This document shows positions 2,158-17,927 of a DNA stretch of 17,927 nt, one piece after another. Source of the stretch: a virus (Duplodnaviria; Heunggongvirae; Uroviricota; Caudoviricetes); the IMG/VR virus record IMGVR_UViG_2541047837_000002, one strand, 5' to 3'. The translations under genes were made by a program, and so were the position numbers. The notes under the pieces were generated by a model. It did no database searches and had not been told where the DNA came from. It saw only the letters and a program-made list of their open reading frames with translations. Numbering within the stretch: the first letter of the stretch is position 1; each line of letters begins with the position of its first letter.

Positions 2158-2161
2158 TTTG

Positions 2162-2494
2162 TTATCCTTTTGGTTTAGTAAGAAACACTAAAATTCCGAT
2201 AATGATATCGCCAATAACCCATAAACTTCCAATGGTAATTAAACCTAAGCCTGTACCAATAACTGCACCGGCTTTTTCGGCATCGGATGTAGCATTATTT
2301 ATTATTTCACTAGTGCCTCCCAGTCCAACTAAAAGCGTATAGATCATAAAAATATTAAATAATATAAAAATCCACTTAATGAGCTTTCCAAAAAATGAAC
2401 GCTTAAGTTTTTTTATTTGTTTACCGCAAGCAGGGCAATACAATGCTGAATCGCTCACCTCTTTCTGGCATTCAGGACATTTGATTAATGCCAT
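2162..2494 (-). CDS. Small zinc-ribbon membrane protein (N-terminal CxxC-x12-CxxC, two predicted TM helices)
   Basis: 110-aa ORF: MALIKCPECQKEVSDSALYCPACGKQI, then two hydrophobic segments (IKWIFILFNIFMIYTLLVGL and ITIGSLWVIGDIIIGILVF). AAGGAGG-like RBS 8 nt upstream of the ATG. Its stop is 5 nt from the start of the 297-aa ORF, so the two are probably co-transcribed. Confidence 0.7.
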   Translation of the reverse strand: MALIKCPECQKEVSDSALYCPACGKQIKKLKRSFFGKLIKWIFILFNIFMIYTLLVGLGGTSEIINNATSDAEKAGAVIGTGLGLITIGSLWVIGDIIIGILVFLTKPKG

Positions 2495-2755: not shown

Positions 2756-2896
2756 TTACTGCTTACACTGTAAGAACGCCGCAAACTCCGCTCCCCAGAA
2801 ACTCATCCGTATTTCGCACAGCGAACCGTGCAACATCCAGATGATGAGGATTACCGTCACGCAGAACGTGATGGCTGTAAGCGATTTTTGCGACAT
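2756..2896 (-). CDS. Hok/Gef-family type I toxin (small membrane peptide)
   Basis: 46-aa ORF missing from the ORF track: MSQKSLTAITFCVTVILIIWMLHGSLCEIRMSFWGAEFAAFLQCKQ. It has one TM helix followed by the family-typical SLCEIR ... E-x-AAF-x-x-C motif. GGAG RBS upstream (aaaaGGAGcaagtgctATG). Confidence 0.7.
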   Translation of the reverse strand: MSQKSLTAITFCVTVILIIWMLHGSLCEIRMSFWGAEFAAFLQCKQ

Positions 2897-3538: not shown

Positions 3539-4561
3539 ATGGGAAGAGATATAACGCTGTACCCTAAAAAAGCAACTAGAAACGAACTTAAAAATTACCT
3601 TGAAAATTTAGGTTTTAAAAGGTGTAAACATTTGTGGGAATGGCCCCAAGGAACGTTGAATTACTCTTGGTTTGATGATACGGACTTCAAATCTACAGAT
3701 GGAGTTTCGGCTGATATATATCCTGTTTCAAATGACGAACTACACATATCTGGTAATAAATGGGCATTGCATGTGCGTAATTTATATAGCGCTAGTTGGC
3801 ATGATGTAAAAATGCTTAATGATGTTCTAAAAGGCGCACGGAGTCTTTTTGGTGGAACACTTATAGGTGATTATGGGAAAAATAGGTACGCTCCTCTATG
3901 GAAGGATTCTAGTAGTCCGATCAGTCGTGGCATTTCTTCAATATTTAATCATGTCCATCATGAGATTTCCGCTGTTAAACATGCCTTACCTGAACCTTCT
4001 ATTAAATTAAACCTACCGGAAGATGGCGGCTTATCCGAATACTTTGATTACATGCAATGTATGGATCCCAGTAGAGTTATATATAATGGATTAGTACCTT
4101 TTGCGGTTGCTATGTTTGAATATTTTTTCTCTAGAGCTTTTCAAATACTTATAAAGTACGATCCTTTCGCAATAGCAAAAAGAACATCGTATAAGCAAAA
4201 AGTTGATTTTGATATTCTGCTTGAGATAGAGAAAGGAAATATTTCAATAGAAAGTGTTATTGCAAGAAATTACACTTTTCAAAACTTAACCCACCTAAAC
4301 AAAGCATATAAAGAGTGGCTGGATATAGATGTGAGAGCGATTCTTTATAAGAAAAAAAGAATTGGAAAATCAGTTGATTTTCTTGAGAATCGAATTTCTG
4401 AAATCATACAATATAGACATGGGATAGTTCATCACTTTGAGTTGGATAGGACCTTAAATCGGGATGGATATATTCATATATTAGATGCGATAGAAAAAAG
4501 CATAATTGAATTTATCCATTACATAGAAGGCAAATACAAATTTAAATTAAATGCGTATTAA
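3539..4561 (+). CDS. Hypothetical cargo protein with a C-terminal HEPN-like Rx4H motif; candidate abortive-infection or defence protein
   Basis: 340-aa ORF, conspicuously AT-rich compared with the flanking ogr and D, with an AT-rich promoter-like upstream region and an AGGTGA RBS. C-terminal segment ENRISEIIQYRHGIVHHFELDR contains R-x4-H. No other family signature recognised. Confidence 0.75.
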   Translation: MGRDITLYPKKATRNELKNYLENLGFKRCKHLWEWPQGTLNYSWFDDTDFKSTDGVSADIYPVSNDELHISGNKWALHVRNLYSASWHDVKMLNDVLKGARSLFGGTLIGDYGKNRYAPLWKDSSSPISRGISSIFNHVHHEISAVKHALPEPSIKLNLPEDGGLSEYFDYMQCMDPSRVIYNGLVPFAVAMFEYFFSRAFQILIKYDPFAIAKRTSYKQKVDFDILLEIEKGNISIESVIARNYTFQNLTHLNKAYKEWLDIDVRAILYKKKRIGKSVDFLENRISEIIQYRHGIVHHFELDRTLNRDGYIHILDAIEKSIIEFIHYIEGKYKFKLNAY

Positions 4562-4681: not shown

Positions 4682-5782
4682 TCACTCTGTTTCTGCTATC
4701 CATTCCGGGATTTTTGCCTCAAGCTCAAGCTGTGTGGTAAAGCCGCTGTTATCAATGGTGTGCTCGGCTTTTGCAATAATCCAGTCCTGATTATCAATCT
4801 CGCTTTTAAAGCCTGTTACCGTGCCATGCATTTCGGGGTAGAGTTCTGCGCGTCCGCGTGCCAGCATGATGGAGAATGATGCGGCTCCGCGTTGTAGCTG
4901 CTGCCACTTTGCCGCCGCTGCGCGTCTTGCTGCCTGCTCGTTCTGATAAGTCTTGCGTAACACAAACACATTGCCTTCCGCGCCTTCCATATAATCACCT
5001 TCACGGCTGCTGCTTTTCTCCTTTTTCGATTTGCGGCGTTTCACGCTGACTTTTTTCTTTTTCCCGTAATTAAGATCAAGCCAGTAGGCGCGTACACCCG
5101 TATACGCCTCGCGGTCAGCAATGCGAAACTGATGGCGATCGCCGCTGCTGCGTGTGATGGCAAACGATGGCAATGGTTTTCCCTGCGCGTTCACGCCACC
5201 GCCTGGCATGATGAATAACAGATTACCGCTTTTTACCGTGGTGATTGCGCCCAGCATTTCCGCCATGCGCGTAAGGAAGGACATGTCACTTTCTTCGGTC
5301 TGGTCGGCGTGGTCGATTTCGATATCCATCAGCATTTCGCTAATTTGCGGTTTCAGACCGTACCGATGAGCGATGGCGGATACCACACGCTCAACGGTCA
5401 CATCATGCCAGGACACCTCACGTTTAACGTTAAATTCATCCCGAAAATCTGCGCTTCTGGCCGAAATGGTCAGCCTGTCCGGCGGTCCTTCGTGAGCGAT
5501 TTCATCAACAATGTAAGTGCCTTTTTCTGTCAGCGGTTCTCCTTTCCAGCCAATGAGAACCGTCAGGCGCGCGCCCCGTGGCGGTAGCTGCAACTGACCA
5601 TCCGCATCATCCAGCGTGATGGTGAGCTGGTCCGCCTCAAATCCCCGGTTGTCGGTCAGTGACAGGCTCATCAGGCGCTCTGCCACGCCTGACAGCGTTT
5701 TACCCTCCGCGAGAATATCAAAATCCGGCATTTTCACGGGGTCTGTGCCCTGACTGAGCAATTGCATGGTGGTGTCGGTCAT
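4682..5782 (-). CDS. D: P2 gpD-like tail protein
   Basis: The ORF track gives 410 aa from a non-ATG start. The likely true start is the ATG at 5782 (MTDTTMQLLSQGTDPVKMPDFDIL...), which has a GGGAGGG RBS 5 nt upstream. Size and sequence are consistent with P2 late gene D. Confidence 0.85.
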   Translation of the reverse strand: MTDTTMQLLSQGTDPVKMPDFDILAEGKTLSGVAERLMSLSLTDNRGFEADQLTITLDDADGQLQLPPRGARLTVLIGWKGEPLTEKGTYIVDEIAHEGPPDRLTISARSADFRDEFNVKREVSWHDVTVERVVSAIAHRYGLKPQISEMLMDIEIDHADQTEESDMSFLTRMAEMLGAITTVKSGNLLFIMPGGGVNAQGKPLPSFAITRSSGDRHQFRIADREAYTGVRAYWLDLNYGKKKKVSVKRRKSKKEKSSSREGDYMEGAEGNVFVLRKTYQNEQAARRAAAAKWQQLQRGAASFSIMLARGRAELYPEMHGTVTGFKSEIDNQDWIIAKAEHTIDNSGFTTQLELEAKIPEWIAETE

Positions 5783-5939
5783 CTGTTCCCTCCCTGTGCG
5801 GCATGGTCGCATGTGCGTGCGGAGGGGGTTACTGCTTTTTGTTGTCGCCGGGTCGGGAGAACGGCGCAGGGGTGAGATTACGCGCGTGGTGGGTGATGAT
5901 TGTTGCCGAATCATTTAACGGATACAAGGGGCTGAAGCT

Positions 5940-7124
5940 ATGAGTGAAACTCGTTTTCATGGTGCCCGTGTTACGGAAAATACCGACCTGGTAACAGCGA
6001 TTAACGATGTTGATTCCAGCGTTATCGGTATCGTGGCAACGGCGGATGATGCGGACGCGAAGCTGTTCCCGCTGAACAAGCCCACACTGCTGACCCGCGT
6101 CAATGACGTGCTGGGAAAATGCGGGACAACGGGGACGCTTTATCGTGCACTTAAGGCCATCGCAGACCAGGTGAGCACAAAGGTGATCGTCGTTCGCGTG
6201 GCTGAACACAAAGAAGAAGACGGAAAGACGCAGGATCAACTGGTTATCGGTGGTTCTGAGGATGACGGCAGCTATACGGGGATGTATGCGCTGCTTGTTG
6301 CAGAGCAGGATGAAAGCATCGGATACCGTCCGCGTATTCTGGCCGCGCCGGAGCTGGACACGGAGGCTGTAACAAAATCCCTGTGCGTGATTGCAGGTAA
6401 ACTGCGCGCGTTTGTGTATGCCTCATGTTACGGCTGTAACACGATGGCTGAGGCGATTACCTACCGCCAGAAATTCAACGAACGTGAGGTGATGCTCTTA
6501 TGGCCGGACTTCATCGCCTACAACCCGAAAAGTGGCAAAAACGAAACGTTCCCCGCGCCTGCCTATGCGTGCGGCCTTCGTGCGTACATTGACCATGAGC
6601 AGGGCTGGCACAAATCATTGTCCAACGTTCCGGTTAAAAATGTGCTGGGGATGTCGAGGCATGTGTTCTGGTCGTTGCAGGCCGAAGACAGCGATGCCAA
6701 CAGCCTCAACAACAAAGAAATCACGACCATTATTCGTCGCAACGGGTTCCGCTTCTGGGGCAACCGCACACCGGAAACGAACGCCTACATCTTTGAGGTG
6801 TATACCCGAACCGCACAGGTGCTGGCTGATTCAATTGCGGAAGCGCAGTTTGAAACCATCGACAGTCCACTGACGCCTGCGAATGTGAAGGATGTTATCA
6901 GTGCCATCAGGGCAAAACTGGATTCGCTGGTTACTGCCGGGAAACTGATTGGTGCGGAGTGCTGGTATGACGTGGTGGATAACGGCACCACGAATTTACG
7001 TCAGGGGCGTGTGCGTATTCGCTACAAATATACGCCCGTTCCGCCACTGGAAGACATGGAGCTTTACCAGACGTTTACTGATGAATACTTTGAACCCGCA
7101 TTTGCGGTGCTGGGAGGTGCCTGA
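5940..7124 (+). CDS. FI: Contractile tail sheath protein (P2 FI-like)
   Basis: 394-aa ORF with conserved blocks shared with P2 FI as I recall it (FPLNKP, KLRAF.Y, EQGWHK.LSNV, RRNGFRFWGNRT, YKYTPVPPLE). Stop overlaps the FII start (TGATG). Confidence 0.9.
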   Translation: MSETRFHGARVTENTDLVTAINDVDSSVIGIVATADDADAKLFPLNKPTLLTRVNDVLGKCGTTGTLYRALKAIADQVSTKVIVVRVAEHKEEDGKTQDQLVIGGSEDDGSYTGMYALLVAEQDESIGYRPRILAAPELDTEAVTKSLCVIAGKLRAFVYASCYGCNTMAEAITYRQKFNEREVMLLWPDFIAYNPKSGKNETFPAPAYACGLRAYIDHEQGWHKSLSNVPVKNVLGMSRHVFWSLQAEDSDANSLNNKEITTIIRRNGFRFWGNRTPETNAYIFEVYTRTAQVLADSIAEAQFETIDSPLTPANVKDVISAIRAKLDSLVTAGKLIGAECWYDVVDNGTTNLRQGRVRIRYKYTPVPPLEDMELYQTFTDEYFEPAFAVLGGA

Positions 7125-7636
7125 TGGCTGTGCCAAAACATCTTCGCTTTTTTACGCTGTTTGTGGATGGTGAAAACGAAGTGGGTAAGGTGACGTCCGT
7201 CACTCTGCCTAAGCTGACGCGCAAAACCGACAGCTACCGGGGGGGCGGCATGATGGGTGCGGTAAGCATTGATCTCGGTCTGGAAGACTCCGCGCTTGAT
7301 GCGAGCTTTGTCATGGGGGGCGCAGTTCGTGAGCTGTTCCTTAAGTATGGCGGCACGATTGACGGCACGCTGCTGCGTTTTGCGGGTGAATACTACACCG
7401 ATGCAGAAAGTGACCTGTATGAAGTCGAAATGCGCGGACGTGTGACGGAAATTGATATGGGGGAAGCCAAACAGGGCGAAGCCACATCACACACTTACGC
7501 CATTAAAAACACCTACTACAAGCTGAGTGTTAACGATCGCCCGTTGTGGGAGATTGACCTGCTGAACTTCATTTACCGGAAGGACGGCAAGGACATTGTG
7601 CCCGATCGCATCCGTTCCGCGCTCGGGCTTGGCTGA
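7124..7636 (+). CDS. FII: Tail tube protein (P2 FII-like)
   Basis: 170-aa ORF immediately after the sheath gene with a 1-nt stop/start overlap. Size and position match P2 FII. Confidence 0.88.
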   Translation: MAVPKHLRFFTLFVDGENEVGKVTSVTLPKLTRKTDSYRGGGMMGAVSIDLGLEDSALDASFVMGGAVRELFLKYGGTIDGTLLRFAGEYYTDAESDLYEVEMRGRVTEIDMGEAKQGEATSHTYAIKNTYYKLSVNDRPLWEIDLLNFIYRKDGKDIVPDRIRSALGLG

Positions 7637-7690
7637 TAAGTAATATGCAGGCGGCGCAGTGCGTCGCCTCTGACTGAAAGGAGTTTCCTG

Positions 7691-8056
7691 ATGAAAGAGA
7701 CGAAAAACATCGATACCGAAAACACGGTAGTTACTGACACTGTGAAAGAAACCAGTGAGCGTGGCGTAAAACTTACCCAACCAATTGAGCGAGGCGGCGA
7801 AAAAATCACGTATGTGGAGATCACCGGGGCTATTGAGCAGGCTGGATCTCTGCGAGATTTGTCGCTGTCTGATGTGCTGAATCTGAAAGCGGAATCCATG
7901 TTTACGCTGCTGTCACGCGTGACATCACCGCGACTGGATGAAGTGACGATCAAAAAAATGGCATCCCGTGACTTTATTCAGTTATGTGTGGTTGCCGTAA
8001 ATTTTTTGAGCGGTGCGGACTCTGGCGGGAAGAACGAACAGGCGACGGAAGCCTGA
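7691..8056 (+). CDS. E: Tail assembly chaperone E (zero-frame product)
   Basis: 121-aa ORF with an AAGGAG RBS. The internal block DVLNLKAESMFTLLSRVTSP resembles P2 gpE. It contains the TTTTTTG slippery heptamer near its 3' end. Confidence 0.8.
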   Translation: MKETKNIDTENTVVTDTVKETSERGVKLTQPIERGGEKITYVEITGAIEQAGSLRDLSLSDVLNLKAESMFTLLSRVTSPRLDEVTIKKMASRDFIQLCVVAVNFLSGADSGGKNEQATEA

Positions 8057-8220
8057 TCACGGTTGTGTGCTTTGAGCACATTGAAGACTTTGTGGCAGAT
8101 ATTGCCGTTATTTTTAACTGGTCGCCCGCCGAAATCTTCATGATGACGCCCGGCGAAGTGGTTAGCTGGCGTGAGCGGGCGGCACTTCGCAGCGGGAATG
8201 CAGACAATGAAGACTCTTGA
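7691..8220 (+). CDS. E+E' tail chaperone fusion made by programmed -1 ribosomal frameshift
   Basis: The -1 frame ORF 7984-8220 has no plausible independent start and continues from the slippery site at 8002-8008. This is the conserved chaperone pair located between tube and tape-measure genes. Confidence 0.7.
8002..8008 (+). promoter_or_regulatory. -1 frameshift slippery heptamer T TTT TTG
   Basis: X XXY YYZ heptamer in the E reading frame (codons AAT TTT TTG). After a -1 shift it reads FFERCGLW..., identical to the 7984-8220 ORF. Confidence 0.7.
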
Positions 8221-11014
8221 TATCCGGGTCGCTTTCAGCGCCGTTGACAGGCTGACCCGACCTGCCGAAAACGCCCGCCGCCTGATGGGGCAGTTTGGTG
8301 ACTCCATCCAGCGAACGCAGGGGGCGATCAAAAATCTCGAGCGTCAGGCGCGATCATTTGAGCGCGCCCGCGACGCTGTCAGTAAAGCGGACGCGGGCAT
8401 CGTGAAAGCACGACGCCAGCTTAACGCCCTTAATCAGTTACAACGCACGGGTACAGTGCTCAGCGAAAAACAACAAAAGCTGATGCAGCAGTTAAGCACC
8501 CGGCTTGAACGCCTGAATGAATCGCGCACACGGGAAATTCAGAAAATGCGGGAGCTTGGCGGAGAACTGAAACGCCACGGCATTTCCCTGACAGGCAGCG
8601 ATAACACCATTCAGCAGGCCATCAGACGCACCGAACAGTACAACAACCAGCTTGAACGCGAACGGCAGGCGCTTGCGCGTGTAACGCGGGCGCGTGAGCG
8701 GTATTCGCGCGCGCAGGAAACCGCGGGAAAACTGAAAACAGGTGGTGCGCTGGCAATTGGTGCGGCAGCGGCGGGCGGCTATGCTGCCGGGCGTTTTTTG
8801 CAGCCTGCGATCGGGTTCGGCAAAGAGATGTCCCGCGTTCAGGCACTGACGCGAATCGACAAAAACAGCCCGCAGTTTAAGGCGCTGCGTGAGCAGGCGT
8901 TAAAACTGGGCTCTGAAACGCAGTTCACCGCAGGCGATGCCGCCAGTGGGCAGGCATTTCTTGCAATGGCTGGCTTTACACCACAGGCCATTCAGGCTGC
9001 GCTCCCTGGCGTACTGAGCATGGCAACGGCTGGCGGTATGGACCTCGGTGAGACGGCGGATATTGGCTCAAATATTCTGACGCAGTTCGGTCTTTCTGCT
9101 GACCAGATGGACCGGGTCGGCGACACACTCACCGCAGCGTTTACCCGTACCAACACTGACCTTCGCGCACTGGGTGAAACCATGAAATATGCAGGTCCGG
9201 TGGCGGGTAAGCTGGGAATATCGCTGGAGCAGGCCGCAGCGATGGCGGGCGTGCTGGCGAATATGGGTATCAGGGGGAGTGATGCTGGTACGGCAATGCG
9301 TGCCAGCCTGGCTCGTCTGGCATCACCGCCAAAGGCGGCAGCAGAGGCGCTGAAAGAGCTTGGCGTGTCTGTCTCGGATGCCGGGGGCAAAATGCGCCCG
9401 ATGGAGGATGTGCTGGCTGACCTTTATAAAGCTACCCGCAAATACGGGGAAGTTGACCGGGTATCGTTCTTTAAGGACATTGCCGGAGAAGAGGCTTTCA
9501 CATCATTTATGGCCCTCGTTGATGCGGCAGGTGACGGCTCCTTACCCAAACTGAGAAAAGAACTTGAAGGCGCGCGCGGTGAGGCTGAACGCACGGCAAA
9601 GGTTATGGCCAACAACCTTGACGGCGATCTGAAATCACTCAGCAGTGCATGGGAAGGGTTGCGCATCCGCATTGCAGATCTGATTGACGGTCCGCTGCGT
9701 TCTGTCACGCAGTGGCTCACGCGTGTGGTATCAAAGGTGACGGCGCTGGCGCAGGCCCATCCCGCACTGACGCGCCAGCTACTGATTGCAGGCGGTGCAC
9801 TGCTGGCAATGACTGCAACGGTTGGCTCGTTGTCGCTGGCTATTGGTGTGCTTGCTGGCCCGCTGGCAAAACTGCGTCTTGGTTTTTCCCTCCTGACCGG
9901 ATCAATGAATGCTGTCAGGGTTCTGCCAGCACTATGGGGAATGGTGACGGGTTCCGTTTCTTTACTGGGAGGCGCTATCGGGGCGTTGTTCAGTCCGGTT
10001 GGTCTTATCGTGGCTGCGCTTGCCGGAGCTGCCGTTCTTATCTGGAAATACTGGGATCCCATCAGGGCATTTTTTGCCGGGGTGTTCAGCGGGATTATGG
10101 AAAGGCTGACCCCGTTGCGCGAAACCTTTGAACGGTTTGGTCCTGTTTTTGACGCAATCGGGAGTGGGATCAGCCAGGTGTTTAACTGGTTTAAATCGCT
10201 GCTGTCACCGATGGAGTCCAGCAAGGAAACTCTGGATAAATGTACCAGTGCTGGCGAGATATTCGGTAACGTTCTTGGCGGTGCGTTACAGCTTGTTCTG
10301 ACACCTGCAAAAATGTTGCTGGATACGCTGGCGTGGATACTTGAAAAGCTTGGTGTGCTTCCGGATGAAGCGGAAAGGGCGCGCAAGAAAATCGAAGACG
10401 CACAGCGTGCGGCCATTCTTCAGGACAAGGTTGCCTTGCTTCAGGGGGACCTGGCGAAAATCAATCCGCCGAAGCCTGTGGAAAATGGCAATGGCACCGG
10501 AGGTGATAACCCCAAAGACAATAAACCGCTCACAGACAGCAATACCGGTACGCTGCGCAGACTCAGCAAAATTGCTGATAACACAGGTAAGCTGGTTGAG
10601 GAGACGAAAAAACGCATTGGCCCCGGCGATATTGTCTTTAAAAACCTGCCCCGAGCACTTGCTGTTCGTGGGGAGTGGCAGGAGCGGAAGATTGCGCAGG
10701 TCAGTAAGCCTGCCCCCGCAATTAATATCACACCCGTGGTCCCGGCTCCGCTGCCTCCGGCGCTGGTCCCTGTTGTTGCGGCCAGCTCCCGCCCGGTGGC
10801 GGAGGCTATACGATCTCCAGTGGCATCAGTTCCTGTAACTTCCCGTAACCGGGAGCCTGTTGCCTCCGGATTTGGTGGTGAAATTCATGTTCATCTGCAT
10901 AACGTTGTTACGCAGAATCCCCGCGAACTGGCGAAACTGGTCGGTGAAATGGTCAGGGCAGAAATGGAACGGCGCGCCCGTGCCGGGCGTGGCAGTTTTT
11001 ACGATAAAGATTGA
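8198..11014 (+). CDS. T: Tail tape-measure protein (P2 gpT-like)
   Basis: Ala/Gly-rich ORF of about 938 aa with a coiled-coil N-terminal part and internal hydrophobic segments, placed between E/E' and U. The start is uncertain between the ATGs at 8198 and 8207; the ORF track's 8171 is a non-ATG start. Confidence 0.88.
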   Translation: MQTMKTLDIRVAFSAVDRLTRPAENARRLMGQFGDSIQRTQGAIKNLERQARSFERARDAVSKADAGIVKARRQLNALNQLQRTGTVLSEKQQKLMQQLSTRLERLNESRTREIQKMRELGGELKRHGISLTGSDNTIQQAIRRTEQYNNQLERERQALARVTRARERYSRAQETAGKLKTGGALAIGAAAAGGYAAGRFLQPAIGFGKEMSRVQALTRIDKNSPQFKALREQALKLGSETQFTAGDAASGQAFLAMAGFTPQAIQAALPGVLSMATAGGMDLGETADIGSNILTQFGLSADQMDRVGDTLTAAFTRTNTDLRALGETMKYAGPVAGKLGISLEQAAAMAGVLANMGIRGSDAGTAMRASLARLASPPKAAAEALKELGVSVSDAGGKMRPMEDVLADLYKATRKYGEVDRVSFFKDIAGEEAFTSFMALVDAAGDGSLPKLRKELEGARGEAERTAKVMANNLDGDLKSLSSAWEGLRIRIADLIDGPLRSVTQWLTRVVSKVTALAQAHPALTRQLLIAGGALLAMTATVGSLSLAIGVLAGPLAKLRLGFSLLTGSMNAVRVLPALWGMVTGSVSLLGGAIGALFSPVGLIVAALAGAAVLIWKYWDPIRAFFAGVFSGIMERLTPLRETFERFGPVFDAIGSGISQVFNWFKSLLSPMESSKETLDKCTSAGEIFGNVLGGALQLVLTPAKMLLDTLAWILEKLGVLPDEAERARKKIEDAQRAAILQDKVALLQGDLAKINPPKPVENGNGTGGDNPKDNKPLTDSNTGTLRRLSKIADNTGKLVEETKKRIGPGDIVFKNLPRALAVRGEWQERKIAQVSKPAPAINITPVVPAPLPPALVPVVAASSRPVAEAIRSPVASVPVTSRNREPVASGFGGEIHVHLHNVVTQNPRELAKLVGEMVRAEMERRARAGRGSFYDKD

Positions 11015-11020
11015 GGAGTC

Positions 11021-11515
11021 ATGGCCATGATGATGATCTACGGCATGTTTGTTTTTGAGCTGCGCACGCTGCCGCATCAGCAGTTACAGCAAAACAAAAG
11101 CTGGCGGCATGTGAAAAATGAACGCGTTAACCGTTCAGCAAGCTGGCAGTATATCGGTGCAGGTGATGATCGCATCGTTCTTTCTGGTGTGCTTTATCCT
11201 GAAATTACAGGTGGCGAAGTGTCGCTGTCGCTGCTGACCACGCAGGCGTATACAGGACGACCCTGGCCTTTGATTGATGGCGTCGGGCAGATTTACGGCA
11301 TGTATGTCCTGACTGAAACGAATACGACCCGCTCCGAGTTTGATCGCTACGGTAAGGCGAAAAAGATAGAATTTTCACTGACTCTTGAACGCTGTGATGA
11401 GGATTTGCGGGAGCGCCTGCAATCCTCATCGTTCAGTGATATGCTGTCCGGCTTCAAAGATAAGGTGACATCATCTCTTAACAGCGCGGCCAGTTCAGTT
11501 AAAGGGCTGTTCTGA
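11021..11515 (+). CDS. U: Tail protein U (P2 gpU-like)
   Basis: 164-aa ORF (MAMMMIYGMFVFELRTLPHQ ... YPEITGG ... YGMYVLTE) resembling P2 gpU, directly after the tape-measure gene. Confidence 0.85.
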   Translation: MAMMMIYGMFVFELRTLPHQQLQQNKSWRHVKNERVNRSASWQYIGAGDDRIVLSGVLYPEITGGEVSLSLLTTQAYTGRPWPLIDGVGQIYGMYVLTETNTTRSEFDRYGKAKKIEFSLTLERCDEDLRERLQSSSFSDMLSGFKDKVTSSLNSAASSVKGLF

Positions 11516-11526
11516 TTTAACACAAA

Positions 11527-11556
11527 AACCGCTAATGGTCAGATTAGCGGTTTTCA
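11527..11556. terminator. Bidirectional intrinsic terminator between U (+) and the invertase gene (-)
   Basis: Stem aaccgctaat / attagcggtt (11527-11536 and 11543-11552) with loop ggtcag, flanked by T-runs on both strands (ttttcatttt downstream on plus; ttttgtgtt on minus). Confidence 0.6.
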
Positions 11557-12143
11557 TTTTCCTGAGTCTGCCCGGTTGTTTCTTCAGTCTGTATATCGCC
11601 TACAGGGTGATAACGATAAATCGTCGATGTGCCAATGCCGTAAATTATTGCCAGTTGTTTTCTGTCGTGCCCGTTTTTGATTAGCCTTGCTATTTGCTCA
11701 TGCTGTTCTTTTGTCAGCTTCGGTCGACGTCCGCCTGTGCGCCCCCTTGCGCGCGCTGCCGCCAGCCCGGCCAGTGTACGTTCAACAATTAATTCACGTT
11801 CCATTTCAGCCAGGGCACCCATCACGTGGAAGAAAAAACGCCCCATTGGAGAAGATGTGTCTATGCTGTCGGTCAGACTGCGAAAATTAATCCCTCGCTC
11901 CCGTAGTTCCCCGACGAGAGAAATCAGATGTTTCATGCTTCGCCCGAGGCGATCCAGTTTCCAGACAACCAGCGTGTCACCTTTTTGAAGGCGCTTTAAA
12001 GCGCGTTTTAATCCCGGTCGGTCTGTCTTTGTCCCGCTTAATTTATCTTCAAATATTTGTTCACATCCTGCACAAACAAGAGCGTTTCGTTGCAGGTCTG
12101 TATTCTGGTCATTTGTTGATACCCTTACATAGCCAATCAGCAC
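11544..12143 (-). CDS. Serine-recombinase DNA invertase (Hin/Gin/Cin/Pin family)
   Basis: The N-terminus LIGYVRVSTNDQNTDLQ carries the catalytic-Ser motif of the resolvase/invertase family, and a C-terminal HTH-like region (LAIIYGIGTSTIYRY) follows. The likely start is the GTG at 12143, preceded by AGGAGA; the ORF track's 12161 is a TTG further upstream. Confidence 0.85.
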   Translation of the reverse strand: MLIGYVRVSTNDQNTDLQRNALVCAGCEQIFEDKLSGTKTDRPGLKRALKRLQKGDTLVVWKLDRLGRSMKHLISLVGELRERGINFRSLTDSIDTSSPMGRFFFHVMGALAEMERELIVERTLAGLAAARARGRTGGRRPKLTKEQHEQIARLIKNGHDRKQLAIIYGIGTSTIYRYHPVGDIQTEETTGQTQENENR

Positions 12144-12197
12144 ACTGAATCTCCTGTCCAAAAGCGCAAATCATGCCATGCAGGCCAGAAACGGCCA

Positions 12198-12223
12198 TTA
12201 TTTAAAACCTCGGTTTACAGGAA
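12198..12223. other. Invertase crossover site, gix/hix-like 26-bp (left boundary of invertible segment)
   Basis: ttatttaaaacc-tc-ggtttacaggaa has imperfect dyad symmetry with half-sites TTATTTAAAACC and TTCCTGTAAACC around a 2-bp core. It matches the reverse complement of the site at 14876-14901 at 21 of 26 positions. Confidence 0.75.
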
Positions 12224-13084
12224 ACGGTAAACAGGGCTGGTAACGCCGTGCAAAAAAATGGCGATACCTTGTCCGGTGGGCTTACTTTTGAAAATGACTC
12301 AATCCTTGCCTGGATTCGAAATACTGACTGGGCGAAGATTGGATTTAAAAATGATGCCGATGGTGACACTGATTCATACATGTGGTTTGAAACAGGCGAC
12401 AACGGCAATGAATATTTCAAATGGAGAAGCCGCCAGAGCACCACAACAAAAGACCTGATGACGCTGAAATGGGATGCACTAAATATTCTTGTTAATGCTG
12501 TCATTAATGGCAGTCTTGGAGTTGGTTCGACGAATGCGTTAGGTGGTAGCTCTATTGTTCTTGGTGATAATGACACCGGATTTAAACAGAATGGAGACGG
12601 TATTCTGGATGTTTATGCTAATAGTCAGCGTGTATTCCGCTTTCAGAATGGAGTGGCTATTGCTTTTAAAAATATTCAGGCCGGGGATGGTAAAAAATTC
12701 ACGCTATCCAGCTCCAACAACTCCACAAAGAATGCAACGTTTAATTTATGGGGTGCTTCAACCCGTCCAGTAGTTGCAGAGTTAGGCGATGAGGCAGGAT
12801 GGCATTTCTATAGCCAGCGAAATACAGATAACTCGGTAATATTTTCTGTTAACGGTCAGATACAGCCCAGCAACTGGGGGAATTTTGATTCACGCTATGT
12901 AAAAGATGTTCGCCTGGGTACGCGTGTTGTTCAATTGATGGCGCGTGGTGGTCGTTATGAAAAAGCCGGACACGCAATTACCGGATTAAGAATCATTGGT
13001 GAAGTAGATGGCGATGATGAAGCCATCTTCAGACCAATACAAAAATACATCAATGGCACATGGTATAACGTCGCACAGGTGTAA
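12212..13084 (+). CDS. Silent alternative tail-fibre C-terminal (host-range) cassette Sv', promoterless in this orientation
   Basis: The reading frame is open from the crossover core (GLQETVNRAGNAVQKNGDTLSGGL...) and ends with INGTWYNVAQV, parallel to the expressed fibre C-terminus ...INGTWYNAGSI. The ORF track begins it at the GTG at 12248. Confidence 0.75.
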   Translation, partial: GLQETVNRAGNAVQKNGDTLSGGLTFENDSILAWIRNTDWAKIGFKNDADGDTDSYMWFETGDNGNEYFKWRSRQSTTTKDLMTLKWDALNILVNAVINGSLGVGSTNALGGSSIVLGDNDTGFKQNGDGILDVYANSQRVFRFQNGVAIAFKNIQAGDGKKFTLSSSNNSTKNATFNLWGASTRPVVAELGDEAGWHFYSQRNTDNSVIFSVNGQIQPSNWGNFDSRYVKDVRLGTRVVQLMARGGRYEKAGHAITGLRIIGEVDGDDEAIFRPIQKYINGTWYNVAQV

Positions 13085-13087
13085 ATT

Positions 13088-13615
13088 ATGCAGCATTTAA
13101 AAAATATTAAGTCCGGAAATCCAAAAACAAAAGAACAATATCAGCTAACAAAAAATTTTGATGTTATCTGGTTATGGTCCGAAGACGGTAAAAACTGGTA
13201 TGAGGAAGTAAATAACTTTCAGGACGACACCATAAAGATTGTATACGACGAAAATAATATTATTGTTGCCATAACCAAAGATGCCTCAACACTTAATCCC
13301 GAAGGCTTTAGCGTCGTTGAGATTCCCGATATAACAGCCAATCGTCGTGCCGATGATTCAGGGAAGTGGGTGTTTAAGGACGGAACTGTGGTTAAGCGGA
13401 TTTATACAGCAGACGAACAGCAACAACAGGCCGAATCACAAAAGGCCGCGTTACTTTCAGAAGCTGAATCAGTCATCCAGCTTCTGGAACGTGCTGTCAG
13501 GCTGAATATGGCAACAGATGAGGAACGTACACGACTGGAAGCCTGGGAACGCTACAGCGTTCTGGTCAGCCGCGTGGATACGGCAAAGCCAGAATGGCCA
13601 CAAAAACCAGAGTAA
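13088..13615 (+). CDS. Tail-fibre assembly chaperone (silent copy, Tfa/gpG-like)
   Basis: 175-aa ORF paralogous to the minus-strand chaperone at 13644-14177 (shared [19 protein letters not shown] and [17 protein letters not shown] blocks). Confidence 0.8.
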
Positions 13616-13620
13616 AAATT

Positions 13621-13640
13621 AAGGCCCGATATCGGGCCTT
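13621..13640. terminator. Palindromic bidirectional terminator at the centre of the invertible segment
   Basis: 20-bp perfect palindrome aaggcccgatatcgggcctt between the two convergent chaperone genes, followed on the minus strand by a U-run (aattttt). Confidence 0.55.
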
Positions 13641-13643
13641 CTC

Positions 13644-14177
13644 TCATTCTGGTTGTTCGGGAAACGTTACTGGCAGGCTGGAGGTGTCTGTAGATTCGAC
13701 TTTCTGCGCAAAGAGCATCCACTCGGTTAATTTCTGCTTATTCTCGTCGGAAATGATGCCCAGCCGTAGCTGTGAGTCCCATAGCTGGGTTTTATCCCTG
13801 ACAAGTTGCAACAGGCTTTGCTTTTCATTTTCCGCTTGTTGTCTCTGCTCTTCCTCGGTATAAGTTCGCTTTATCACTACGCCATCTTTGAACATCCATT
13901 TCCCCGAAATATCAGCCCGGCGATTTGCTGTAATATCAGGTAATTCAACGACGCTTGCGCCTTCCGGATTAATTGCTGAAACATCCTTTTCAATACAAAT
14001 AATAACGCCGTTATGGTCATAGACCATTTTCAAAGTGTCTGGCTGGAAATTCTTTTGTTCCTCATACCAGTTTTTTCCATCATCTGAATAAAGCCATTTG
14101 ATGTTAAATTGCTTTGTTAGCTGATATTGCTCTTTTGTTTTAGGGTTGCCAGCAGTAATGTTTTTTAAGTGCATCAT
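13644..14177 (-). CDS. Tail-fibre assembly chaperone (expressed orientation, Tfa/gpG-like)
   Basis: 177-aa ORF directly downstream of the tail-fibre gene with a 4-nt overlap. Paralogue of 13088-13615. Confidence 0.85.
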   Translation of the reverse strand: MMHLKNITAGNPKTKEQYQLTKQFNIKWLYSDDGKNWYEEQKNFQPDTLKMVYDHNGVIICIEKDVSAINPEGASVVELPDITANRRADISGKWMFKDGVVIKRTYTEEEQRQQAENEKQSLLQLVRDKTQLWDSQLRLGIISDENKQKLTEWMLFAQKVESTDTSSLPVTFPEQPE

Positions 14178-14179
14178 CG

Positions 14180-16165
14180 TTAAATACTCCCCGCGTTATA
14201 CCACGTCCCATTAATGCAATACTGAATTGGCCTTGCCTGTGTTGTATCAATTAATTCATCACGGTTTCCGTTAACTGAACCCGTAACGACATAACCTGAC
14301 CTGTCAGACCAGCCGGGACCATTCCATGTCTGAACAGATGACAGACCGCCAAGGCGAATACCTGTAATAAACCTTGAGTTACATTCTGCCTGCGTATATG
14401 CACCAACATCTCCCGCTGAAGGTTTTCGTGTCGTGGTATAGAAATCTGACCAACCTAATTCAAACCCATAACCATCACGAGCCGACCTGTAGGAAATGCC
14501 ACCATTTTTATAATTCACACGGAATTGTACGGCAGGACAGCTACCAGCATTTATATTAAAGTGAAGAATTAATACAGATGCACCACCAATCAGGGCGTTA
14601 TATGCACCACTATCCCAATTCCATCCAACGGATGTATCACCATTAACAGTATTACCTGTTTGTCGGAGTGCAAATGCATTGACATTTTTGGCACTAATTG
14701 AAATATCGCTAGAACCATCAAAACCAACTCCAGCAATTTTTCGTGCTGTTTTCAGCTTTGTTGCAGTAGCGGCATTGCCGGACAGTTCCCCAGAAAGGCC
14801 ACCGCTGAATGTTTGTCGATTGGTCCAGGTATTCGCTGTACTGAGTAACGGTATTTTCTCCCCGCTTGTGCCGAGTTCTCGTAAACCGAGGTATTCGATA
14901 ACGGCGGCAACGGTCGATTTCGCAAGAATATCCCGCCCGACTTTTGTCAGGGTTGCCAGGCTGGCGACATCATTCCCCGTAAAATACGGAAACTTGTCTG
15001 CCGCAGTAGCAAGCCCGGCCAGCGCCGTCAGGGTGGCATCTTTCGGTTGCTTACCCGCAAGCGCGTTAGTCATGGTGGTCGCAAAATTCGGGTCGTTTCC
15101 CAGCGCCGCCGCTAACTCGTTCAGCGTATTCAGTGCGTCAGGTGACGAATCTACAAGGGCGGCAATCGCAGCCATAACGAAAGCCGTGCTTGCGATTTGG
15201 GTATTATTCGTTCCCTGTCGCGCAGTTGGCGTTGTTGGCGTTCCGGTCAACGCAGGACTGTTTAAGGGCGCTTTCTTGTTCGTTTCATCCATTACCGCCT
15301 TAACCGCTTTCGATGTCGCGGCCAGTGTTTCAGACGTGCTGTTGGTGGCACTACTGAGCTGGACTATCCCTTTTTGTGCCGTCGTAGCGTCTTGAGCGGT
15401 ATATTTTGCGTTAGCAAGGTCATACGCGGCCTTTACTGCTTTCGGCGTTGCAGCCTGCGTTTCAGACGTGCTGTTGGTGGCGCTACTGAGCTGGACAAGG
15501 CCTTTTCGCGTCGTGCTGGCATCCTGCGCAGTATATTTACCGTTAGCAAGATCATACGCGGCCTTTACTGCTTTCGGCGTTGCAGCCTGCGTTTCAGACA
15601 CGCTGTTAGTGGCGCTACTGAGTTGAACAAAGCCTTTTGCGGTCAGAGAGGCGTCCGGGTGACGTCGTGACTGTTCATGCTCTTTCAGTTTGTCATCCAC
15701 GTAATCCACTGTGGCCATCACCATGGTGTTATCCACGGTAAGCGCCACGGTGGCAGTGCTGGATACGGTCAGAATGGTGCGAAATGTTTGTGCACGTCCG
15801 GACCCTTCGGCAACGGCTGGCTTGTAACTTTCGGCAGTATTTCCCACCGCGATTAAATCGCCGTGCTCATCAAATACACCAATTTCCCGGATCCAGAATC
15901 CGCCCGTTTCAGGAGGAATAACCAGCTCCGCAATAATGCGGTTCTGATGTGTTGCGTCCAGGATGACGCGATTAACAGTATGTCGCCACACCTCATGCAC
16001 CAGACGGGTCTGCTTACTGTCTGGTGTGGGCAACGTGCCGCCACCGTCGCCCACGGCCATATGAGTCAGGCGGACAGGCTTACCATCTGGCGCGGCTGCC
16101 TGCGCTAATTTTTTGGCACCCGTATCGGTGATAACGGTTTTAAATTTACGTGTTGTGGTACTCAT
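14180..16165 (-). CDS. H: Tail fibre protein (P2 gpH-like constant N-terminal part fused to a variable C-terminal domain)
   Basis: 661-aa ORF. The N-terminus (MAVGDGGG, HEVWRH, IIAELVIPPE.GGFW, AESYKP) and central region (GIVQLSSATNSTSETLAAT ... ALNTLNELAAALGNDP.FATTMTNALAGKQPK) resemble P2 H as I recall it. Resemblance to P2 H ends at IEYLG, which is where the crossover site lies. Confidence 0.9.
   Translation of the reverse strand: MSTTTRKFKTVITDTGAKKLAQAAAPDGKPVRLTHMAVGDGGGTLPTPDSKQTRLVHEVWRHTVNRVILDATHQNRIIAELVIPPETGGFWIREIGVFDEHGDLIAVGNTAESYKPAVAEGSGRAQTFRTILTVSSTATVALTVDNTMVMATVDYVDDKLKEHEQSRRHPDASLTAKGFVQLSSATNSVSETQAATPKAVKAAYDLANGKYTAQDASTTRKGLVQLSSATNSTSETQAATPKAVKAAYDLANAKYTAQDATTAQKGIVQLSSATNSTSETLAATSKAVKAVMDETNKKAPLNSPALTGTPTTPTARQGTNNTQIASTAFVMAAIAALVDSSPDALNTLNELAAALGNDPNFATTMTNALAGKQPKDATLTALAGLATAADKFPYFTGNDVASLATLTKVGRDILAKSTVAAVIEYLGLRELGTSGEKIPLLSTANTWTNRQTFSGGLSGELSGNAATATKLKTARKIAGVGFDGSSDISISAKNVNAFALRQTGNTVNGDTSVGWNWDSGAYNALIGGASVLILHFNINAGSCPAVQFRVNYKNGGISYRSARDGYGFELGWSDFYTTTRKPSAGDVGAYTQAECNSRFITGIRLGGLSSVQTWNGPGWSDRSGYVVTGSVNGNRDELIDTTQARPIQYCINGTWYNAGSI
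14876..14901. other. Invertase crossover site, gix/hix-like 26-bp (right boundary, inside the tail-fibre gene)
   Basis: ttctcgtaaacc-ga-ggtattcgataa, inverted relative to 12198-12223 with the same 2-bp core. It encodes IEYLGLRE in the fibre frame, and the left site gives NLGLQE in the same frame, so the frame is preserved on inversion. Confidence 0.75.
15266..15640. repeat. Tandem repeats of about 132 bp (about 2.8 copies) within the tail-fibre gene
   Basis: DNA blocks gcctttactgctttcggcgttgcagcctgcgtttcagac and gtttcagacgtgctgttggtggc recur at about 132-bp spacing. They encode three 44-aa repeats (VQLSSATNS.SET.AAT.KAVKA ... YTAQDA.T..KG). Confidence 0.7.
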
Positions 16166-16167
16166 GC

Positions 16168-16611
16168 TTAATCGTCCGGATAAATGGTAATGACTTCACC
16201 GTCGTAAGTTGCTGCCGCCGCGAAAATATCTCCCGGGATCTCCTGAATGATATTCAGCCCTGTCATGTGGCGGCTGACCGGGCGGGCATCAGCAATCAAC
16301 CGCTCCATTTCCAGATACATTTCCTCCGTCACGCCACTGTCCAGCGTGCCCACTTCAACGGTAAATGTTCCCGGTTCTCCGCCGAACTCCCACCACTCAG
16401 ACACACGAATGAGGTATCCCAGCGGCTCAATGGCCCGGCGCAGTGCGCTGATGGTTCCCTTGTGTCGGTGTACCAGCCATGCATCACGAATCACCTGTCG
16501 TTTTGTCTCTTCCGGCCAGTTGCGATCCCAGCGGTCAACGGAAAATGCCCAGGCGAGATAAGGCAGCAGGTGCACCGGGCAGGTGTCCGGCGACCACAGC
16601 GTGTTGAGGTC
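16168..16611 (-). pseudogene. I: Truncated baseplate protein gpI (C-terminal part only, N-terminus deleted)
   Basis: The translation LWSPDTCPVHLLPYLAWAFSVDRWD ... EMERLIADA ... ATYDGEVITIYP matches the C-terminal two-thirds of P2 gpI. The frame has no proper start and hits an in-frame stop at 16615-16617. Confidence 0.75.
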
Positions 16612-16625
16612 TAACTAACTATGAG

Positions 16626-16826
16626 GTGAGGGGGAAGCAAGTAACAGAGGGTGCCTTACTTAAGGTTACGAAACACCCTAAATTTAAGAAGTATGCTTAT
16701 TGGTTATCAACAGATGAAACGATGCCGGAGGTCGGGCAAATTTCTCCGGCTCTCTCTCTTGATGGTTCCTGCAATTCGGAGGGAGATCGCGTTTCAACCG
16801 AAACAATCCAAAAATTATCCCGCTGA
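16626..16826 (+). pseudogene. Probable C-terminal fragment of a P2 C-type immunity repressor
   Basis: Sits directly upstream of int and co-directional, where C lies in P2. The block FKKYAYWLSTDETMPEVGQISPALSLDG resembles the C-terminal region of P2 C as I remember it. N-terminal HTH part is absent. Low certainty. Confidence 0.45.
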
Positions 16827-16922
16827 GGCCAGAAAACTGGTTAGACCTGCTTTTTGTCTGGTCTGATTATTGCTGGAAAGAGGCTGGAGAAATTGTAGAG
16901 CGGTTCATTGGAGGGCTTCGTA

Positions 16923-17927
16923 ATGTCGATTAAGAAGCTCGAAGATGGTCGTTATTTGCTGGACATCAGGCCGAACGGACGCAAGGGAAAGCGCGTGCGT
17001 AAGGTATTTGACAAAAAATCGGTAGCGGTGGCCACTGAACGCTACATCATGGCGAACGCTGAAAAGCGGGAATATATACAGGGCTACCGTGATCGTCGAA
17101 CGCTAAATGATTTGCTTGAGTTGTGGTGGATGTATCACGGCCAGCACAGGCGTAAGGCGGAAGAAGACCGAAAACAACTGCGCAACATAATTAATGAGCT
17201 TGGCGCTGATATGCAGGCTGTGGATCTTGATAAGCTGAAAATTATCGCGTGGCGTTCTCAAAAGATAGCTGAAGGATTGAAACCGTCATCTGCTAACAGG
17301 TACATGAATCGGTTATCCGGAATGTTTACCGTGCTGAAAAAAATAGGTCTTTGGGATGCAGAACATCCAGTAAGGGGAATTTCTATTCTTTATGTATCTC
17401 CACGAGAAATGGCGTTCCTGTCACAGAAGGAAGTGGCGCTATTGCTCGATACACTGGAGGGCGACTACTGGCGTGTTGCGCTTTTGTGTTTAAGCACAGG
17501 GGCGCGCTGGAGTGAAGCTTGTAAGCTTCGTGGTGAACAGATAGTTCATAACCGTGTAACGTTTCTTGAAACCAAAAATGGCCGGAAGAGAACAGTGCCA
17601 ATTTCGCAGGCAGTTTGTGAGGCGATCAAAACCAGAGAAACAGGCAGCTTGTTTGAGGTGAAGTACCGGGAATTCTGCCTGGCGCTGAAAAGAGTTAAGC
17701 CCGATTTACCAAAAGGCCAGGCTGCACATGTGCTGCGGCATACGTTCGCCAGCCATTTTGTGATGAACGGAGGAAACATTATTGCGCTTCAGAAGATTCT
17801 TGGTCACGCAACCATTCAGCAAACAATGGCATATGCGCATTTTGCACCGGATTACCTGCAGGATGCGGTGGCCCTTAATCCGCTGAAAGGTGGCGTAAGT
17901 GTCCACGCAGTGTCCACGGGGGATTAA
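16923..17927 (+). CDS. int: Tyrosine integrase, P2 Int family
   Basis: The N-terminus MSIKKLEDGRYLLDIRPNGRKGKRVRKVFDKKS and the catalytic region (LSTGARWSEA, HNRVTF, HVLRHTFASHF, ILGHATIQQTMAYAHFAPDYLQDA) closely parallel P2 Int. The ATG at 16923 has a GGAGGG RBS; the ORF track's 16908 is a TTG. The ORF is complete, with its stop at the window edge. Confidence 0.9.
   Translation: MSIKKLEDGRYLLDIRPNGRKGKRVRKVFDKKSVAVATERYIMANAEKREYIQGYRDRRTLNDLLELWWMYHGQHRRKAEEDRKQLRNIINELGADMQAVDLDKLKIIAWRSQKIAEGLKPSSANRYMNRLSGMFTVLKKIGLWDAEHPVRGISILYVSPREMAFLSQKEVALLLDTLEGDYWRVALLCLSTGARWSEACKLRGEQIVHNRVTFLETKNGRKRTVPISQAVCEAIKTRETGSLFEVKYREFCLALKRVKPDLPKGQAAHVLRHTFASHFVMNGGNIIALQKILGHATIQQTMAYAHFAPDYLQDAVALNPLKGGVSVHAVSTGD

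Follow-up and report, generated by a model that had tools for sequence, protein, structure and literature searches.

A probable Gin-family tail-fibre inversion switch in a P88-like prophage remnant of Escherichia coli

The locus examined here raises the question of whether a tail-fibre switch carried by a defective prophage is still complete, whether it can still invert, and what the inversion could then act on. The window, namely the whole stretch of 17,927 bp that was analysed, holds a P88-like prophage remnant of E. coli (P2 family; Peduoviridae, genus Xuanwuvirus), inserted between flk and pdxB. A preliminary description had recognised in it the architecture of the Mu G, P1 C and e14 P segments, and every element defining a Gin/Cin/Pin-type system can indeed be recognised in the sequence. 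The locus is very probably a two-state site-specific inversion switch of the Gin family (Din), directly homologous to the Mu G and P1 C segments. This type of system is already well known, being an ordinary Mu/P1-type switch of tail-fibre tips.

Sites, cassettes and invertase

The features of the locus are listed below (coordinates in the window, strand, description).

11525–11554, no strand: hairpin where the convergent gpU and invertase genes meet, likely a two-way terminator
11544–12143, minus: serine DNA invertase, 199 aa, GTG start (Pfam Resolvase 1.5e-50 and HTH_7 4.4e-13)
12054–12125, minus: predicted Fis-dependent recombinational enhancer (invertase nt 19–90), collinear with nt 19–90 of cin in the P1 record
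12144–12197, minus: spacer separating the left site from the first codon of the invertase, with an AGGAG ribosome-binding site and a presumed weak promoter; aligns without gaps with the Mu gixR–gin spacer
12198–12223, plus: left crossover site (equivalent of Mu gixR, beside the invertase gene), core TC at 12210–12211
12210–14889, no strand: invertible segment, core to core, 2,680 bp; inverting exactly this interval reproduces strain LR-64-2
12212–13084, plus: silent cassette B, encoding a fibre tip of the P2 gpH C-terminal type in frame with the site
13088–13615, plus: chaperone B (P2 gpG/Mu U type), Caudo_TAP; P2 G 91%, Mu U and P1 U 95%
13621–13640, no strand: G+C-rich hairpin between the convergent chaperone genes (8 pairs, 6 of them G–C, minus-strand T-run), likely a terminator
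13644–14177, minus: chaperone A (Mu U' type), now co-oriented with H, Caudo_TAP; Mu U' 97%, P1 U' 96%
14180–14887, minus: expressed fibre-tip cassette A (Mu S'/P1 type), last 165 aa 89% identical to Mu S'
14876–14901, minus: right crossover site (gixL equivalent, inside the fibre gene), core GA on the plus strand at 14888–14889
14888–16165, minus: constant N-terminal fibre part (P2 gpH homologue), Pfam Phage_tail_fib N-terminal domain and three fibre repeats
16168–16613, minus: gene I, 5'-truncated, covering only profile positions 38–138 of Pfam Tail_P2_I and ending at the deletion junction

The left site reads TTATTTAAAACCTCGGTTTACAGGAA and the right site, as its reverse complement, TTATCGAATACCTCGGTTTACGAGAA. 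The two 26-bp sites stand in inverted orientation, match at 21 of 26 positions and share the asymmetric core TC, an arrangement characteristic of the Din family; the positions given to them in the preliminary description, and the common 2-bp core, were all correct. A degenerate site pattern occurs at exactly two places in the window, compared with 0.00 expected from 200 shuffles, and this search found no third crossover site within the window. The pair was also recovered independently by a repeat search, as a 30-nt repeat with 80% complementarity. The left site is identical to the gix sequence from the Mu record at 24 of 26 positions, and the outer half of the right site, TTATCGAATACC, resembles that of P1 cixR, TTATCCAATACC.

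The sites had been said to bracket about 2.7 kb holding two convergent cassettes, each with a fibre tip and a chaperone, and this agrees with the measured segment and its two Caudo_TAP genes. As in Mu G and P1 C, a constant fibre N-terminus is followed by either of two alternative in-frame tips, each provided with its own chaperone. The constant part is collinear with aa 4–379 of P2 gpH, save for one additional 44-aa repeat. In the present state, H covers 14180–16165 on the minus strand, encodes 661 aa and reads ...VIEYLGLRELGTSG... across the site, while in-silico inversion from core to core leaves an open frame of 716 aa that reads ...VIEYLGLQETVNRAG.... The fibre frame, proposed to continue through either site, is thus open in both states. 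The NLGLQE reading at the left site is preceded by TAA, so that the flank there is non-coding, as expected. The resemblance to P2 gpH was thought to stop at the right site (IEYLG), which is true of the present orientation; the rest of gpH (aa 380–669), together with gpG, sits in the silent cassette, and flipping would therefore yield a P2-type fibre from end to end. Cassette B is identical to P2 gpH aa 380–669 at 280 of 290 residues (96.6%), and DNA identity with the P2 H–G region reaches 91% over 1,402 nt. In cassette A, LRELGTSGEKIPLLSTANTW... finds its match in P1 S immediately inside cix.

The serine invertase gene, placed immediately outside the left site in the preliminary description, lies 54 bp from it. 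It really begins with the GTG at 12143 rather than with the upstream TTG of the mechanical ORF, and Mu gin likewise starts with GTG. The protein, found in relatives as WP_000905061.1, matches the Gin entries 4M6F and 3UJ3 of the PDB (E 3e-100 and 1.4e-99) and carries Ser9 (RVSTND). It shares 84.5% identity with Mu Gin overall, with 117 of 119 residues identical in the catalytic domain (aa 2–120) and 36 of 61 at aa 121–181, and 98% to 99.5% identity with the invertases of phages P88, P884B11 and Citrobacter phiSM. With its catalytic Ser and C-terminal helix-turn-helix, it has the make-up of the small serine recombinases of the Din family, and both its ORF and the putative enhancer stretch are undamaged.

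A Fis-dependent enhancer had been expected in the 5' part of the invertase gene, and its likely position can now be given by homology to Mu gin and to the P1 cin annotation. Nucleotides 1–102 are 100% identical to Mu gin (158 of 160 over nt 1–160), so that the enhancer region is retained, and the stretch from site to gene shows zero indels relative to Mu, hence a site-to-enhancer distance equal to that of Mu. With a loose Fis consensus, nt 34–48 and 71–85, 37 bp apart, are picked out in both the invertase gene and Mu gin, a pair that does not reproduce the 48-bp spacing of the Hin enhancer. Since this loose scan is uninformative, we relied on the identity with Mu gin, from which Fis binding is predicted. 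The eLife 2013 paper on Hin provides no coordinates for the Gin enhancer. With regard to expression, the spacer upstream of the gene differs from its Mu counterpart by a few substitutions, and a simple sigma-70 scan found no strong consensus for the invertase. Mu gin is also weakly expressed.

These features suggest a mechanism in which the 199-aa invertase would bind both 26-bp sites, assisted by Fis bound at the enhancer within the 5' end of its own gene. Inversion in Din-family systems depends on Fis and on negative supercoiling, within an invertasome. Strand exchange at the central TC would then invert the 2,680-bp segment and join the constant fibre part (aa 1–426) to one of the two tips, giving either the present 661-aa fibre, with a Mu S'-type tip and a U'-type chaperone, or a predicted 716-aa fibre with a P2 gpH-type tip and a gpG/U-type chaperone.

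Orientation of the segment in E. coli genomes

Among 5,426 complete E. coli genomes, 2,497 of which had some match to the query, the segment is oriented as in the window in 78 records and flipped in 61. Strain LR-64-2 carries the same remnant as an exact copy of the window flipped in silico: only 2 SNPs, neither of them within the switch, separate the two over 17,927 bp, and there are 0 differences from 5030 to 17927. The remnants of VE-F10 and PEC399 are likewise flipped, and all three share the 16612/16613 deletion junction with the window. Outside the remnants, UTI89 and NU14 on the one hand, and 32F4 and 33E on the other, show 0 mismatches over 15,698 bp once the core-to-core interval is inverted, with half-sites swapped as predicted for a crossover within the shared ACCTCGGTTTAC. 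Comparison between strains thus points to inversion by core crossover, as is proper to the Din family, and shows that natural strains undergo inversion at these sites, this remnant lineage among them after its deletion. These flipped relatives also bear out the earlier proposal that the switch is intact and should still be able to flip although the prophage is defective. Flipping at the level of cultures has been reported in P2-like prophages of EPEC E2348/69 (PMC4272514).

The same strains could be explained differently if the switch were an intact fossil that does not invert here, its flipped sisters having had theirs replaced, by homologous recombination, with the flipped segment of a P88-like phage that was either incoming or co-resident; the two crossovers would lie in the invertase/U flank and in the H-constant flank. 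Donors do exist, since P88-like prophages with near-identical segments are common (the 2,497 genomes mentioned above), and a promoter consensus for the invertase was not seen. However, the donor would need to have had the very same sequence, given the absence of differences in the flipped remnant, the half-site swaps fit core crossover exactly, and the invertase ORF and its predicted enhancer region are undamaged. We regard this explanation as scarcely credible.

Another possibility is that the segment is flipped in trans by a different Din-family invertase of the host, such as a Pin-type enzyme of e14 or a Mu-like Gin, the gene of the remnant being silent or irrelevant. Din invertases cross-complement, PinQ of Qin inverting the e14 P segment (PMC12529663), and action of Fels-2 Fin on hix is cited in PMC4272514. 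The local gene is nevertheless intact, WP_000905061.1 also occurs in complete prophages showing both orientations, and in VE-F10 and 364_BP0073 megablast, which misses more distant invertases, found only a single locus resembling the 3.7-kb query. Action in trans therefore appears unlikely, and inversion by the element's own Gin-family invertase remains the preferred reading.

A switch in a deleted prophage

Through a deletion of about 20.1 kb, the remnant has lost genes J, W and V, the first part of gene I, the genes for lysis, head and replication, and the immunity/early promoter region; its baseplate, head and late-promoter regions are thus absent. A BLAST comparison with the complete prophage of IHE3034 locates the junction at 16612/16613, with a 2-bp overlap; the prophage is defective because of this deletion, which ends there in gene I. 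No virion can be formed, and flipping therefore cannot alter the host range of any virion in the remnant. The preliminary suggestion that the fibre specificity can still flip consequently stands for the DNA but not for particles, H having also lost its native late promoter through the deletion. In the remnant, the switch would have no virion to act on, and the DNA state alone would change, possibly with a low-level putative fibre product. In complete relatives such as IHE3034, UTI89 and P88, host-range switching would be expected.

Several peculiarities of the remnant were considered and set aside. Expression of H from an early promoter brought in by the deletion was rejected, since the repressor gene is interrupted by the junction and the promoter region has been removed. 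The tail block FI–U (5940–11515) has the opposite orientation to H, D and ogr, which is not the case in P2, and we therefore considered whether it had become inverted in the remnant, possibly through action of the invertase on secondary sites. This was rejected because the same layout is found in the complete UTI89 and IHE3034 prophages and in phage 503458, and because the window has no further gix-like sites; such an orientation is the normal architecture of the P88-like genus. Gene D was not retained as truncated or chimeric (410 aa as a mechanical ORF, 264 aa according to PGAP), as a plausible gpD of 366 aa can be read from the ATG at 5782, behind GGGAGGG. An Rfam gathering scan of the window gave no match.

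The preservation of the switch in such a remnant might also reflect co-option by the host, one orientation's fibre or chaperone altering the cell surface or blocking the adsorption of other phages. A precedent has been reported for PinQ and StfE2 of e14 (PMC12529663), and in a prophage reduced by about 20 kb, no lesion affects the invertase, either cassette or either chaperone. On the other hand, the remnant is rare, being found at 100% identity in 4 of the 5,426 complete genomes; one carrier has an IS5 inside cassette A; H is without native promoters; and PADLOC matched neither the invertase nor the cargo genes. Moreover, across the junction the remnant hardly differs from the complete prophage of IHE3034, so that the deletion looks recent and intactness requires no selection. 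We consider co-option highly improbable. A related idea, that a live invertase is useful to the host, either by acting in trans to flip the segments of other phages, resident or incoming, or by toggling an orphan fibre and chaperone that alter phage susceptibility, appears very unlikely. An effect of this latter kind was recently claimed for PinQ and StfE2 of e14 (PMC12529663), but nothing in the present data points to a host-relevant invertase.

Returning to the Gin-family switch, its importance goes little beyond correct annotation. The 'hypothetical protein' and 'phage tail protein (pseudo)' of RefSeq at this locus represent the silent cassette of a phase-variable fibre gene, and where assemblies that are otherwise identical differ in orientation, the cause is biological and not an error of assembly. 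As a minor point, a Gin-type switch still inverts despite the loss of about 20 kb by its phage, a lesson already drawn from e14.

Relation to known inversion systems

At the DNA level, the segment is about 90% identical to the segments of Mu (G), P1/P7 (C), D108 and SfMu. The Mu system comprises Gin, the sites gixL and gixR, the sis enhancer and the gene pairs S–U and S'–U'. Read along the fibre strand, it shares with Mu G the order constant part, site, tip and chaperone, inverted chaperone and tip, site, invertase, as well as chaperones 95% to 97% identical and an S'-type tip 89% identical. It differs from Mu G in that its constant part resembles P2 gpH and not Mu S, its cassette B is of the P2 H type and only 46% identical to Mu S, its sites are alike at 21 of 26 positions whereas gixL and gixR of Mu are identical, the DNA-binding domain of its invertase has diverged from that of Gin (36 of 61), and its carrier is a P2-family prophage.

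The C segment of P1/P7 (Cin) and the B segment of Shigella boydii (PinB) share 90% to 92% DNA identity with the query over about half of its length, and the P1 record itself remarks that its segment is 93% identical to the pinB locus. Immediately inside the site, the tip region (LRELGTSGEKIPLL...) agrees with P1, and the outer half-site variant AATACC is common to cixR and the present element. However, cin points towards its segment, with its 3' end at cixL, the P1 core is TT instead of TC, and the C segment measures 4.2 kb.

P88-like phages (Xuanwuvirus: P88, P884B11, Escherichia phages 503458/520873 and Citrobacter phiSM) are of the same phage type and have the same layout, with the 98–99.5% identical invertase annotated as 'DNA invertase', whereas the window copy is a deletion remnant. 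In P884B11 and Citrobacter phiSM, the whole site-to-site module is 95.7% to 97.6% identical. Inversion is not mentioned in the P88 paper.

The flipped-state fibre is collinear with P2 gpH from end to end, with 83% identity over 710 aa, and P2 H contains TTATCGAATATCTCGGTTTACAGGAA, which is the predicted flipped junction with one base changed. P2 has no invertase, second cassette or second site, and looks like a fixed version of the P2-type state. Finally, e14 of E. coli K-12, which bears the P segment with Pin, is lambdoid and has other fibre genes (stfE/ycfK) and a segment of 1.8 kb, but it too is a defective prophage, and its Din-family switch continues to flip in culture (PMC4272514).

The invertible segment and its crossover sites

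The preliminary description had proposed two 26-bp crossover sites for the tail-fibre switch, and their coordinates, their match at 21 of 26 positions (left site versus reverse-complemented right site) and their common 2-bp core, which is TC, were all borne out. The pair is also listed, as repeat I3, in an independent repeat search of the window. A degenerate pattern describing both sites occurs at two places only in the 17.9 kb, against 0.00 expected (200 shuffles), and a window scan with a looser core pattern returned no third crossover site, so that this is a simple two-state switch and not a multi-site shufflon. The core-to-core interval of 2,680 bp holds two convergent units, namely, cassette A, in the expressed orientation, and the silent cassette B.

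Features of the switch (window coordinates, strand, description)
11544-12143, minus: serine invertase (Pfam Resolvase and HTH_7)
12198-12223: left site, TTATTTAAAACCTCGGTTTACAGGAA, core TC at 12210-11
12212-13084, plus: fibre tip of cassette B (silent), 280/290 identical to P2 gpH aa 380-669
13088-13615, plus: chaperone of cassette B (Pfam Caudo_TAP), 91% to P2 gpG and 95% to Mu U
13621-13640: G+C-rich hairpin between cassettes A and B
13644-14177, minus: chaperone of cassette A (Pfam Caudo_TAP), 97% to Mu U'
14180-14887, minus: fibre tip of cassette A (expressed), 89% to Mu S' (last 165 aa)
14876-14901: right site, reverse complement TTATCGAATACCTCGGTTTACGAGAA, core GA at 14888-89 on the plus strand

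In its present state, the fibre gene H (14180-16165, minus strand), a P2 gpH homologue, codes for 661 residues, reading ...VIEYLGLRELGTSG..., and in-silico inversion yields an uninterrupted 716-residue frame reading ...VIEYLGLQETVNRAG..., in agreement with the earlier proposal that the fibre frame is kept in both states. The constant part of H carries, at 15300-15640 (minus strand), three Phage_fiber_2 repeats versus two in P2 gpH, corresponding to 44 additional residues.

The invertase gene and its predicted enhancer

The true start of the invertase is a GTG, as in Mu gin, giving (M)LIGYVRVSTND, whereas the mechanically delimited ORF begins at a TTG farther upstream. The protein matches the Gin structures 4M6F and 3UJ3 (E 3e-100 and 1.4e-99, respectively) and possesses the catalytic Ser9. 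It shares 117 of 119 residues with Mu Gin over aa 2-120, but only 36 of 61 over aa 121-181, and DNA identity to Mu gin falls from 88-100% up to nt ~360 to about 40-60% beyond (11544-11785, nt ~360-600). This drop indicates a mosaic invertase, in which a Gin catalytic domain is joined to a DNA-binding domain of different origin. The closest relatives (98-99.5%) are the 'DNA invertase' proteins of phages P88, P884B11, 503458, 520873 and Citrobacter phiSM, all classified in Peduoviridae, genus Xuanwuvirus.

A Fis-dependent enhancer had been expected in the 5' part of the gene, which is where the Mu enhancer lies within gin (as reported by Kahmann et al. 1985). In the P1 record, the enhancer of Cin-mediated inversion is annotated at cin nt 19-90, and this region aligns without gaps among the window invertase gene, Mu gin and P1 cin. 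The window gene does not differ from Mu gin at any position over nt 1-102 and matches it at 158/160 over nt 1-160, and the spacer of 54 nt that separates the site from the start codon shows zero indels relative to Mu. The predicted enhancer region is thus as in Mu, and so is its distance to the nearest site.

Deletion and gene content of the remnant

IHE3034 carries a complete prophage at this same position, and mapping against it placed the deletion junction at window 16612/16613, where the joined ends overlap by 2 bp (microhomology). Gene I, without its first ~28 codons, is there fused to what is left of the HTH repressor gene upstream of int, namely its final 215 bp. Relative to IHE3034, the remnant lacks about 20.1 kb, comprising the remaining part of I, then J, W and V, the genes for lysis, head and replication, and the early/immunity promoter region, while ogr, a cargo gene, D, FI-FII-E-E'-T-U, the invertase, the segment, H, I' and int remain. 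The native late promoter of H is gone and virion production is impossible; the switch in this strain alters the DNA state only, and fibre expression is putative. At 100% identity, the remnant is present in only four complete E. coli genomes.

The tail block FI-FII-E-E'-T-U (within 4682-11515) runs opposite to D/ogr and H/I/J, whereas the order in P2 is collinear. Damage was rejected as an explanation, since complete P88-like prophages and phages share this layout, which is normal for the genus. Between D and FI, which are divergent, lie 157 bp (5783-5939). For gene D (4682-5782, minus strand), the most probable start is the ATG at 5782, which follows GGGAGGG and yields a 366-aa product; RefSeq annotates the identical gene either as a 264-aa 'VgrG/Pvc8 family' protein accompanied by a tiny pseudogene or as 'late control D family protein'. 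Between ogr and D, 3539-4561 (plus strand) codes for a 340-aa 'hypothetical protein', absent from the UTI89 phage copy, with a weak sub-threshold Pfam match to HEPN_RiboL-PSP (E 1.2e-4) and no PADLOC match; it may be a cargo or defence gene of the phage. The prophage end adjoining ogr carries a Hok/Gef family toxin gene (~2756-2896, minus strand), annotated in relatives, and an Rfam scan of the whole window returned no family at threshold, Sok included. Between flk and this hok end, 1264-2494 (minus strand) codes for two proteins, one VasI/TagO-like (Pfam VasI, 2.5e-25) and the other a small zinc-ribbon protein, both outside the phage as seen at the UTI89 serS site.

Inversion in nature and relation to known systems

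Among 5,426 complete E. coli genomes queried with the 3.7-kb region, 78 records carry the window orientation, and the in-silico flipped region retrieved a further 61, several at 100% identity. LR-64-2 harbours the remnant between flk and pdxB, with the same I'-to-repressor' junction but flipped, and over 17,927 bp only two SNPs, at positions 462 and 5029, set it apart from the flipped window; neither lies in the switch. The VE-F10 and PEC399 copies are flipped too, and 364_BP0073 is the sole database copy of the remnant in window orientation. The latter carries an IS5 within the expressed cassette A (window ~14706-14712; own locus ~17310-18510).

With regard to near-identical strain pairs, the 15,698-bp loci of UTI89 and NU14, and of 32F4 and 33E, differ at ~1,970 positions in their deposited form, a number that falls to 0 once the core-to-core interval is inverted. 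The half-sites are exchanged (TTATTTAAA-ACCTCGGTTTAC-GAGAA and TTATCGAAT-ACCTCGGTTTAC-AGGAA), confining the crossover to 12 shared bases around TC. Together, the flipped remnants and strain pairs show that inversion at these sites occurs in nature, including since the remnant-making deletion. Flipping at culture level has been published for P2-like prophages of EPEC (PMC4272514). These inversions could, however, have been catalysed in trans by another invertase of the Din family (Gin/Cin/Pin/Hin), as PinQ acts in trans on e14 (PMC12529663). That the switch appears able to flip although the prophage is defective, as suggested beforehand, follows from the LR-64-2 sequence; as for fibre specificity, the claim stands for DNA inversion, seen in sister remnants, and fails for host range, as virions cannot be made.

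The system has every feature by which a Din-family tail-fibre switch is defined in sequence, enhancer function and Fis dependence being predicted. The host-range consequence for virions is absent from the remnant, which has no phage to release. The system belongs to the best-studied site-specific inversion family, and cultured phages and hundreds of E. coli genomes carry annotated copies that are nearly identical to it; the one result of modest use is the clear-cut proof by comparison that, in the remnant, the switch flipped after the deletion that made it.

The invertible DNA shares ~90% identity with the Mu G, D108, SfMu, P1 and P7 segments, and P884B11 and phiSM have the site-to-site module (12194-14905) at 95.7-97.6% identity. 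Resemblance to P2 gpH does not end at IEYLG, as had been thought, but goes on in the silent cassette B. P2 gpH is collinear end to end with the flipped-state fibre (83% over 710 aa), which has one extra 44-aa repeat, and codons ~375-384 of P2 H contain TTATCGAATATCTCGGTTTACAGGAA, a vestigial crossover site that departs from the predicted flipped junction at one base. With neither invertase nor second cassette, P2 looks like a fixed version of the state in which cassette B is joined to H.
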